From: Tagaea sp.
GTDB taxonomy: Bacteria > Pseudomonadota > Alphaproteobacteria > CACIAM-22H2
DNA length: 64,000 nt
Direction of reading: 5' to 3'
NCBI GenBank assembly: GCA_965279565.1
Contig: OZ257249.1
Coordinates: 791,850 to 855,849, forward strand
Of this stretch, positions 61,835 to 63,066 are shown in pieces. Every line of letters begins with the position of its first letter. The first letter of the stretch is position 1. The notes below the pieces were generated by a model, which worked only from the letters and a program-made list of their open reading frames with translations, ran no database searches and had not been told where the DNA came from. A program made the position numbers and the translations under genes.

Positions 61835-62630
61835 ACCATCGTTTCCGGTAAGCGAAAGCGAGGAGACGACGACACGGCAGCGATCCTTCTCCAGCGCGTC
61901 CCGTAGCTAGGACGCGATCCACTGGCAGGAGCCGGCCCCGAAAGGGTGGCGGCGCGGGAAGGACGGGGTCGGGGCGTTTCTCCGGAGCGGTCGGCGGAGG
62001 CCCGGTGCGAGCCGGGCGGAAGGCGGCAACTCCATTCCCTTCGCGACGGTCGGCGGGTTCCCCTGGGGGTCCGCCCACGTCAGCGCGGGGGGACGGCGTC
62101 GACGGATCCGCGCGATGCGGGGATTCAGGCCGACGGTCGGGGTCGCGAGGGTTCCGCAAGGGACCGGCAGGTGCGGCGGTGACGGCGGGGCGGACCTCAG
62201 GGGTCCAGGAACCCGCGATCGTCGGACAGGCTGCGAGGCACGCAAGGCAGGTGCGAAAGCGCCGTCGTGCGAAGCTCGCGCGAGGCTCGGGTCAGGTCTG
62301 GGACCGCGGAGCAGGCAAGGGTCGGACGTCTCGGGTTCGGGTTTCGGAGGGCCGCGCGTGGCCGCCGGGACCCTCGTCGGTGGGACGCGGACGGAATCGG
62401 GCGGACCAGGGCTCGACCGGACGTGCGAAGCAGGCCCATCGGGGGAAAGCCCGGGTTTCGGCTGCCATGAGGCGGCCGGCGGTCCCGCGAAAGCGGGGGT
62501 GTCGGTGGTGTCGGATCAGCGGCGTGCACGCCCGATCCGGCGGTCCTCGCGAGGCGTCAGGGAGCCCTTTGTCCCGCCCGGACAACGGCCGATCGCAAGA
62601 TCGCCCCTGGCGCCTCTTCATTTTTGGGGA
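61835..62630 (+). ncRNA. Candidate large structured non-coding RNA (~800 nt), family not recognised
   Basis: No credible ORF; G-rich on +; many GNRA-capped hairpins and nested long-range helices whose G-U pairs work only on the + strand; U-rich tail after the last helix. Confidence 0.65.
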
Positions 62631-62730
62631 TTTTTTATCTCGGGAGGGGCGAGGTGGTGCCGACGGCCCCCTCGCGGGAACCGCCGGCACCCCATCGGCA
62701 CGTCGGAGCCTGATGTCCCGCCCGGACAAC
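62561..62730. repeat. Direct repeat GGAGCC-nnn-TGTCCCGCCCGGACAAC (2 copies, 144 bp apart)
   Basis: Copies at 62561-62586 and 62705-62730; 23 of 26 identical, 17 bp perfect core. Confidence 0.9.
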
Positions 62731-63066
62731 ACGGCGCGAAGGCTAAGAAGACTTCGCTTTCCTGACGGAATTTGCGTAACACGCCCCCTCCCCCCCGCCA
62801 ATCGGATTTTGGGACTTTTACAACTTCAAGCGATTTCAATAACTTGTCAATTTTGGCCGGGGGTCGCGACACCGCGTCGCGGGCCGAGTCGCTTTTCAGC
62901 CCTCATCGCGTCGGCCATTGAATTAATTGGATAATCCGGCCTCGGCCGGTCCAGGAGGCCGACGGCGGCGGCAAAAACCGGCCGCCTGAGGAAAACCTGT
63001 CAAGTCTCGGGTCCGGCAGAGGTTTCGCTTCGCCGCGGCGCGGAACGCGGCTACACCTCGCCCCCC

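Follow-up and report, generated by a model that had tools for sequence, protein, structure and literature searches.

The stretch analyzed here, referred to as the window, comprises 64,000 nucleotides (nt) of Tagaea sp. (GenBank assembly GCA_965279565.1, contig OZ257249.1, positions 791,850 to 855,849 of the forward strand), and all coordinates are those of the window. An intergenic gap at 61579-63066 separates sdhC (minus strand, start at 61578; identified by its match to Pfam Sdh_cyt, E = 2e-36) from a plus-strand open reading frame (ORF) that starts at 63067 and has no Pfam match. Within this gap lie a large structured RNA on the plus strand (61862-62637) and, facing it on the minus strand, what is very probably a stand-alone gene for a small RNA (sRNA), the predicted transcript of which runs from ~62767 to 62653. 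A preliminary description of the locus had suggested a convergent small element here that carries an antisense copy of the 3' domain of the large RNA.

The large RNA, which we take to be a transcribed, structured RNA of ~750 nt including a U-rich tail, was covered at 61862-62577 by contigs of all four sequencing runs examined over the region 61300-63300 (X1, X5, X8, and X9; three are metatranscriptomes from three studies and one was only guessed to be RNA). In the same runs, the genes flanking it carried only few short contig pieces. A hint of the 5' end came from a contig of run X1 in which an Illumina adapter stands directly against 61867; contigs of the three other runs begin at 61862-61877. 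By BLAST, the region 61880-62800 (921 nt), a single copy in the genome, was present in 20 of 20 other genomes of the genus and in none of 40 genomes outside it. An alignment of 18 loci revealed many GNRA hairpins, compensatory changes, and indels of 1 to 2 nt in the large RNA, the identity of which falls to 67 to 71% in far species of the genus. When a profile of the large RNA built from the same genus was used with nhmmer, only the 3' module described below was recovered outside the genus. Upstream of the large RNA, by ~85 to 140 nt, we noted a DnaA-box-like array at 61721-61763 (TGTGGACAG, TGTGGATGG, TGTGATCAA, and then CATCAACAA). Its TGTGGA pair was seen by eye in 17 of 17 same-genus loci, and a regular expression matched at least one box in 16 of these 17 and none in two loci that have no large RNA (L021 and L022).

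The last 66 nt of the folded part of the large RNA (62551-62616) form a Y-shaped 3' terminator module, as derived from an alignment of 29 sequences (A3) and from the minimum-free-energy (MFE) fold. The module is closed by the 12-bp helix P1 (62551-62562 with 62605-62616, GAGGCGUCAGGG paired with CCCUGGCGCCUC), in which U.G alternates with U-A in the plus sense only. Above it, helix P2 joins GCC (62564-62566) to GGC (62587-62589); hairpin A (62570-62584, UGUCC-CGCCC-GGACA) exposes its loop at 62575-62579; and hairpin B (62590-62603) has a GCAA loop here and GCAA, GAAA, or GCGA across the alignment. P1 is followed by the tail at 62617-62637, which is T-rich in 29 of 29 rows and is likely the 3' end of the large RNA. 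Two candidate partners (GGGCG) for hairpin A inside the large RNA, at ~62012 and ~62396, were discarded for lack of conservation in the alignment.

A covariance model of the module (R2) matched 36 of 50 genomes of the family and 13 of 15 genera; the order-level set consisted of the same 50 genomes. Thirty-five of the 36 modules were read (G033 was left out), and the loop of hairpin A was CGCCC in 34 of them. Its stem covaries (GUGUUC/GAACAC in L123; U.G in L103 and L104). Outside the family, R2 found the module in 7 of 150 other families sampled. In the six of these that were read, the stem UGUCC/GGACA was kept around loops of CGCCC (two families), CCGCC (one), CUCG (one), or UCGC (two), and no sRNA signals were found within 900 nt of the module. 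In one genome from another alphaproteobacterial family (G178; L125, 1300-3076, minus strand), two large GNRA-rich RNAs stand in tandem, both preceded by boxes of the TGTGGATAA type and both ending in the same Y-shaped module, and downstream of the first the module recurs in two tandem plus-sense copies that are decaying. These show how the second copy described next could have arisen.

The 26-nt direct repeat (D1) that had drawn attention to the locus was found at the positions given for it, with its two copies identical at 23 of 26 positions (88%) and 144 nt apart. Copy 1 (62561-62586, plus strand, GGAGCC-CTT-TGTCCCGCCCGGACAAC) lies within the last domain of the large RNA. Copy 2 (62705-62730) reads GGAGCC-TGA-TGTCCCGCCCGGACAAC in plus-strand letters and GUUGUCCGGGCGGGACA-UCA-GGCUCC as minus-strand RNA, and in the latter form it is complementary to copy 1 at 23 of 26 positions, in agreement with what had been claimed. 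In the window, the exact 17-mer of the repeat occurs twice; allowing up to 3 mismatches, shuffled versions of the window averaged 0.41 matches, and two were reached in 5 of 100. In the whole 4.13-Mb genome we counted the same two exact copies and one unrelated site at 2 mismatches. Taken together with the single-copy status of the 921-nt region, this count rules out a dispersed repeat, which had been named as a finding that would speak against the element. The second copy was also looked for in homologous loci and was present: both copies, with invariant cores, occur in all 16 same-genus loci in which the region is present at both ends. It is this conservation, and not the window statistics, that places the repeat pair beyond chance.

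The limits of the predicted sRNA (62653-62767, minus strand, ~115 nt, MFE of -68.8 kcal/mol) are those of a conserved block in a minus-sense alignment of 27 distinct versions taken from genomes and metagenome contigs (A1); its start was placed from the -10 box and its end from a terminal hairpin. Over 62653-62822, the block is more conserved within the genus (~80 to 97%) than is the large RNA. The 3' terminator-type hairpin (62656-62691, 16 bp, GGUGCCGGCGGUUCCC-GCGA-GGGGGCCGUCGGCACC) forms all 16 pairs on the minus strand, including three G.U, and has three A.C/C.A mismatches on the plus strand, so that full pairing and a GCGA loop on the minus strand only, as described earlier, were both confirmed. 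Over the 27 sequences, the hairpin contained 354 Watson-Crick cells, 68 G.U cells, and 10 mismatched cells when read on the minus strand versus 354, 9, and 69, respectively, on the plus strand. On the minus strand, 97.6% of its cells are paired, with changes on both sides that include double changes (for instance, pair columns of GC 19/UG 7; UG 10/UA 9/CG 7; and GC 15/CG 6/UG 4/AU 1), and the loops are GCGA, GCAA, or GAAA on that strand only. Folded alone, the hairpin was more stable as minus-strand RNA in 27 of 27 sequences, by a mean of 10 kcal/mol. Its conserved structure is strand specific in both its G.U pairs and its loop. For the structure of the whole sRNA, 98.1% of cells were paired, a value reached by 0 of 500 shuffles. 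In the minus sense, the 3' hairpin resembles an internal hairpin of the large RNA in the plus sense (62474-62507 and 62537-62554 versus 62656-62691), and the large RNA has two occurrences of CCGGCGGU(U)CC and the sRNA one (repeats D16, I3, I4, and I20); this likeness may be a coincidence between hairpins rich in G+C or may mark a second element common to both RNAs.

Upstream of this hairpin, the single-stranded linker CCGAUGG (62692-62698), invariant in A1, connects to the body of the sRNA (62701-62767), a three-way junction that is a backwards-read paralogue of the 3' module of the large RNA. Its helices are a P1 (62701-62704 with 62764-62767), in which C-G alternates with U-A in 8 of 26 rows, followed by GGA/UCC, GCC/GGC, hairpin A', and hairpin B' (62736-62757). 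Hairpin A' (62714-62728, UGUCC-GGGCG-GGACA, loop at 62719-62723) is invariant in all 27 same-genus sequences. A hammerhead-like CUGAUG in copy 2 was rejected, since copy 1 lacks it and Rfam is silent there. Contigs of the four runs, which can show neither strand nor short RNAs, did not extend onto 62578-63140.

On the minus strand, the body is preceded by an extended -10-like box, (G)TGnTACGCA, at 62773-62782. Seventeen nucleotides further upstream lies a -35-like box (TTGGCG, 62796-62801), the TTG of which is invariant across genera, and an A-tract resembling an UP element (CCCAAAAUCC, 62804-62822) forms the upstream edge of the conserved block. The position of the -10 box places the predicted start at ~62767, which is the first base of the closing helix of the junction. 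TGnTA is preserved in A1 and, among the 14 sequences collected from other genera (alignment A4), in all but one, which has TATGAT; AAAAT or AAATA is found in every row of both alignments, and in other genera a second A-tract lies ~20 nt further upstream. The G+C-rich spacer between the boxes is fixed at 17 nt and free in sequence among the 27 same-genus and 14 other-genus sequences. At 62779-62795, it holds a minus-strand G-run, GGGGGGAGGGGGCGUGU, in this clade and a G/C palindrome, GCGGGGGGCCCCCCGC, in the L017 clade. Nothing was conserved upstream in the plus sense, and a pattern search for this promoter type in the genome returned this site only. A putative sigma-54 promoter (GGCAC-N5-CGGCA, 62686-62700) was rejected, as its GC becomes GA in the L017 clade. 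The short minus-strand transcript that had been postulated to start at about 62740-62770 thus gained promoter-like boxes pointing to ~62767, the G.U and GNRA asymmetry of its hairpin, and a U-tract in sister genera, and it stands as a predicted transcript.

A covariance model of the sRNA element (R1) matched 30 of the 50 family genomes, in 8 of 15 genera, all at full length. For the five genera that were positive with R2 and negative with R1, we read the DNA downstream of the module and found a diverged sRNA gene in four (g2, g4, g9, and g15); g6 and one of two g9 genomes showed no sRNA within 800 nt. The two genes therefore occur together in 12 genera of the family (8 by R1 and 4 by reading of the loci). 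Features kept across genera in the minus sense are (A/C)CAAAAT-N-GGTTG, the spacer, and (G/A)TG(T/A)TA(C/G), followed by a 5' segment that does not vary (GUCAGGUGUGCUGGACCGA), then by hairpin A', by the linker CCGAUGG (11 of the 14 rows of A4), and by the 3' hairpin. In these genera, the hairpin is followed by a tract of three to six U residues, and in L097 (15 bp, tail AUUUUU) and L118 a terminator scan recognized it on the strand of the sRNA. Among nine other-genus sequences, folding favored the minus strand for the hairpin in nine and for the body in seven, and RNAalifold on the 14 sequences gave hairpin pairs of GC 7/GU 5 and AU 8/GU 3/GC 2. The loop of hairpin A' is GGGCG in 11 of the 14 sequences, with an outer pair of UA in 6 and CG in 5, on stems as different as GCCAUCC/GGAUGGC (L104) and CCGUCC/GGACGG (L103). 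Outside the family, the 19-nt 5' motif with 1 mismatch was matched in 16 of 398 genomes versus 1 control match; none of these 16 has the promoter and terminator context, and they were dismissed as resembling coding or chance matches.

Neither RNA matches Rfam, and both families are uncatalogued. With Rfam 15, the sole match in the whole window was a tRNA (17838-17910, minus strand, 61.8 bits); only weak chance matches were returned for 61400-63100 at E values up to 10, and nine homologous loci of other genera gave two weak microRNA-type matches on the hairpin at E values up to 1. Full-text literature searching surfaced no description of these RNAs.

The space between the two genes varies among genomes. 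In one clade, a segment of low G+C content (~660 to 1100 nt) lies between the large RNA and the sRNA (L027, 2140-2835 of G001; L066/L072; L069/L070). The segment in L027 holds no ORF of at least 80 amino acids wholly inside it and is flanked by an ~35-nt duplicate of the module end (hairpin B together with the 3' side of P1 and the U-tail), and from its sequence it looks like an insertion with target duplication. In L104 (~1405-1495 in the oriented locus; G027), four tandem 20-nt units (AAAACCCAGTCCGGGTTCTG) fill the spacer between the two terminators.

The body of the sRNA is a paralogue of the module in direct DNA orientation, so that its minus-strand reading is antisense to the module. In this genus, the match consists of GGAGCC and 17 nt around hairpin A, together with 7 nt from the helix that closes the module. 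In other genera, nucleotides 1 to 20 of the sRNA would pair without interruption with CUCGGUCCAGCGCGCCUGAC(G), which makes up the 3' side of that helix, and the continuous match in sister genera amounts to 20 to 21 bp. This 20-nt duplex scored -43 to -46 kcal/mol in 10 of 11 genomes (covering nine other genera; L097 and L098 were left out of the scoring set) and -32 kcal/mol in L102. Differences within the 20-nt core are compatible with wobble pairing (two fixed U.G, one G.U in L119, and one U.G in L121). In hairpins A and A', both of which are present in the MFE folds, the stems change independently and compensatorily while the loops stay CGCCC (62575-62579, plus) and GGGCG (62723-62719, minus) and hence complementary. 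The loops contribute five G-C pairs to a fully complementary stretch of up to 15 nt, which scores -33 kcal/mol when treated as a simple duplex. Loop complementarity is kept in 9 of the 12 genera with both RNAs, survives as a shifted match 7 to 8 nt long in two (g4 and g9), and is lost in one (g15). The sole family genome with a differing loop in hairpin A (CUCAGAC; G025, g6) represents the sole genus in which no sRNA was found. That the loops and the 5' segment are conserved suggests, but does not prove, pairing between the two RNAs. A whole-length duplex energy of -151 versus -128 ± 5 kcal/mol for 30 shuffles was not used, as it ignores the folding of each RNA on its own. The predicted 3' ends of the two transcripts are ~35 nt apart (62617-62637 versus 62653), leaving no cis-antisense overlap, and the complementary segments are separate copies, 144 nt apart here and ~140 to ~1280 nt apart across genomes.

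Based on these features, the sRNA may act as a trans-antisense RNA that docks on the end of the large RNA by loop-loop contact, a reading to which we give an even chance. A tandem DNA copy of the terminator module would have come to be read from the opposite strand and so have become the sRNA body. The sRNA and the large RNA would meet via the complementary loops of hairpins A (CGCCC) and A' (GGGCG), the duplex would then spread into the closing helix of the module, and the outcome could be control of the 3' end of the large RNA, of its stability or termination, or else a joint particle of both RNAs. We put forward tentatively, as a possibility rather than an expectation, the fuller version of this model, a dedicated two-RNA system in which the module copy gained an opposite-strand promoter and the sRNA docks by a kissing loop, zips into the closing helix, and either sets the 3' end or lifetime of the large RNA or forms a two-piece ribonucleoprotein with it. 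The linked sRNA family and large RNA beside sdhC would then be a new variant of antisense/kissing-loop RNA control.

Several observations weigh against these proposals, some of them touching the sRNA gene itself. No U-tract follows the 3' hairpin in the window, and the terminator scan called no terminator there; a sigma-70 consensus scan called no promoter in the window, in L097, or in L118, the -10 box being missed because its position 6 is not T. The three-way junction is strand neutral (mean difference of -0.35 kcal/mol), its pairs being Watson-Crick and giving no strand indication, and its single wobble (U.G in P1, L021) falls on the plus strand. Other observations concern the pairing. Complementarity follows automatically from paralogy and so is no proof of selection for pairing, and it has partly decayed in hairpin B in this genus and in L102 overall, with an A opposite C at position 21 in four genomes. 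In g15 (L119), the sRNA lacks hairpin A', although the large RNA keeps CGCCC; the 5' duplex is retained (-46 kcal/mol). Two species of this genus (G006 and G008, genomes 94% and 96% complete) keep the sRNA with an intact hairpin A', and BLAST and R2 found no large RNA at the syntenic site, where sdhC is followed by the sRNA after ~210 nt, or elsewhere in these genomes. Two other families keep CGCCC with no sRNA seen nearby. The decay in hairpin B, the g15 sRNA, the state of G006 and G008, and these two families would also fit a real minus-strand sRNA that acts on other targets, its complementarity to the large RNA being a relic of the duplication and hairpin A' and the linker being retained for a different partner (mRNA or protein). 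So would the conserved linker CCGAUGG, for which no conserved complement was seen in the alignment of the large RNA. We consider this explanation unlikely but by no means negligible. Against it stand the adjacent, convergent placement of the genes in 12 genera, the loops that remain complementary while the stems drift, and the 5' end of the sRNA, which in 10 of 11 genomes still matches the module over 20 bp, its core changes being wobble compatible. The losses in G006 and G008, moreover, look recent, since a metagenome contig with an sRNA block that by eye is very close to that of G006 (L057) has both copies.

Two further explanations were considered. Copy 2 could be a spare module in tandem, transcribed on the plus strand by read-through from the large RNA and serving as a back-up terminator or an extra 3' domain, as the tandem plus-sense copies in G178 would allow. 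The junction does fold equally well on both strands, the plus-strand U.G in P1 of L021 and some G.U at noncanonical positions of hairpin B point the same way, and 62537-62554 can pair with 62670-62687 on the plus strand (89%). This long-range pairing, however, was by eye not kept in the L017 clade and was rejected; no plus-sense U-tract follows P1 of copy 2 (after 62767), and no terminator was called there; mismatched cells of the neighboring hairpin number 69 in the plus-strand reading versus 10 in the minus-strand reading; it is the minus strand that bears the conserved promoter-like and terminator-type signals; and the element is retained in genomes with no large RNA found upstream and in others in which the large RNA is 0.5 to 1.3 kb away. 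A plus-strand role for copy 2 is accordingly improbable. Still less can be said for the repeats being DNA sites, which the preliminary description had offered as its alternative: a dimeric protein would bind TGTCC-N5-GGACA as a palindromic operator or as a site of recombination. The core is indeed palindromic and invariant within the genus, and both copies have the same orientation. Between genera, however, the arms change compensatorily (ATCC/GGAT, CGTCC/GGACG, and GTTC/GAAC) around a fixed, asymmetric center (CGCCC), which is the opposite of what recognition of half-sites predicts. A G.T in L103 and L104 pairs only as RNA, copy 1 is embedded in a module whose other helices covary as RNA, and the spacing of the copies ranges from ~140 to ~1280 nt. 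No recombinase gene was found beside the locus in the ORFs checked, for which the Pfam matches were confined to Sdh_cyt, an adenylate cyclase domain, and an FkbM methyltransferase. We regard a DNA-site function as very improbable. A leader of the downstream plus-strand gene was likewise rejected, as the downstream gene differs between clades: it is a TRAM or methyltransferase-like ORF here and an adenylate cyclase or FkbM methyltransferase gene on the other strand elsewhere.

The proposed docking of the sRNA on the large RNA has partial parallels in known systems. In the type I toxin-antitoxin pairs SR4/bsrG and RatA/txpA of Bacillus subtilis, convergent antisense RNAs meet at 3' terminator stem-loops. 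As in these pairs, the genes described here are convergent, the small RNA is complementary to the 3'-terminal stem-loops of its putative target, loop contact would be expected to come first, and a change in the 3' end or the stability of the target would be the expected outcome. In contrast to them, the genes here do not overlap, and the complementarity, which stems from a duplicated module, would operate in trans; the putative target is a large structured noncoding RNA, and no toxin frame was identified, no small-ORF search having been made. Kissing-loop antisense control of plasmid replication is known from RNAI/RNAII (ColE1) and CopA/CopT (R1). The two folded hairpins with fully complementary loops are a shared trait, whereas the genes here are chromosomal and lie on separate DNA segments, the target is neither a primer nor an mRNA leader, and regulation is only proposed. 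The large RNA itself, being ~750 nt long, GNRA rich, marked by compensatory changes, present in RNA libraries, and of unknown function, is reminiscent of OLE, ROOL, GOLLD, and raiA but has no match to their Rfam models at E values up to 10; to our knowledge, none of these has been described with a dedicated convergent antisense sRNA. Finally, GlmY is a same-sense mimic of GlmZ that works as a decoy for a protein. As with this functionally linked pair, one RNA here derives from a partial duplicate of the other; unlike in GlmY/GlmZ, the copy is read backwards, which would allow base pairing.

Large structured bacterial RNAs of unknown function are rare, and partners are the usual route to their function. 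A linked, conserved sRNA that is able to pair with the invariant hairpin at the end of the large RNA thus offers an experimental entry to the latter. The locus also illustrates how duplication of a terminator module could give rise to an antisense regulator. Should the sRNA act elsewhere, it would still represent an uncatalogued sRNA family, seen in 12 genera, with a strongly conserved candidate promoter. If the proposed pairing is true, the sRNA would be one whose main target is a structured noncoding RNA, a type of interaction little documented in bacteria, and the locus would be a clear case of a regulator born from the terminator of its own target.

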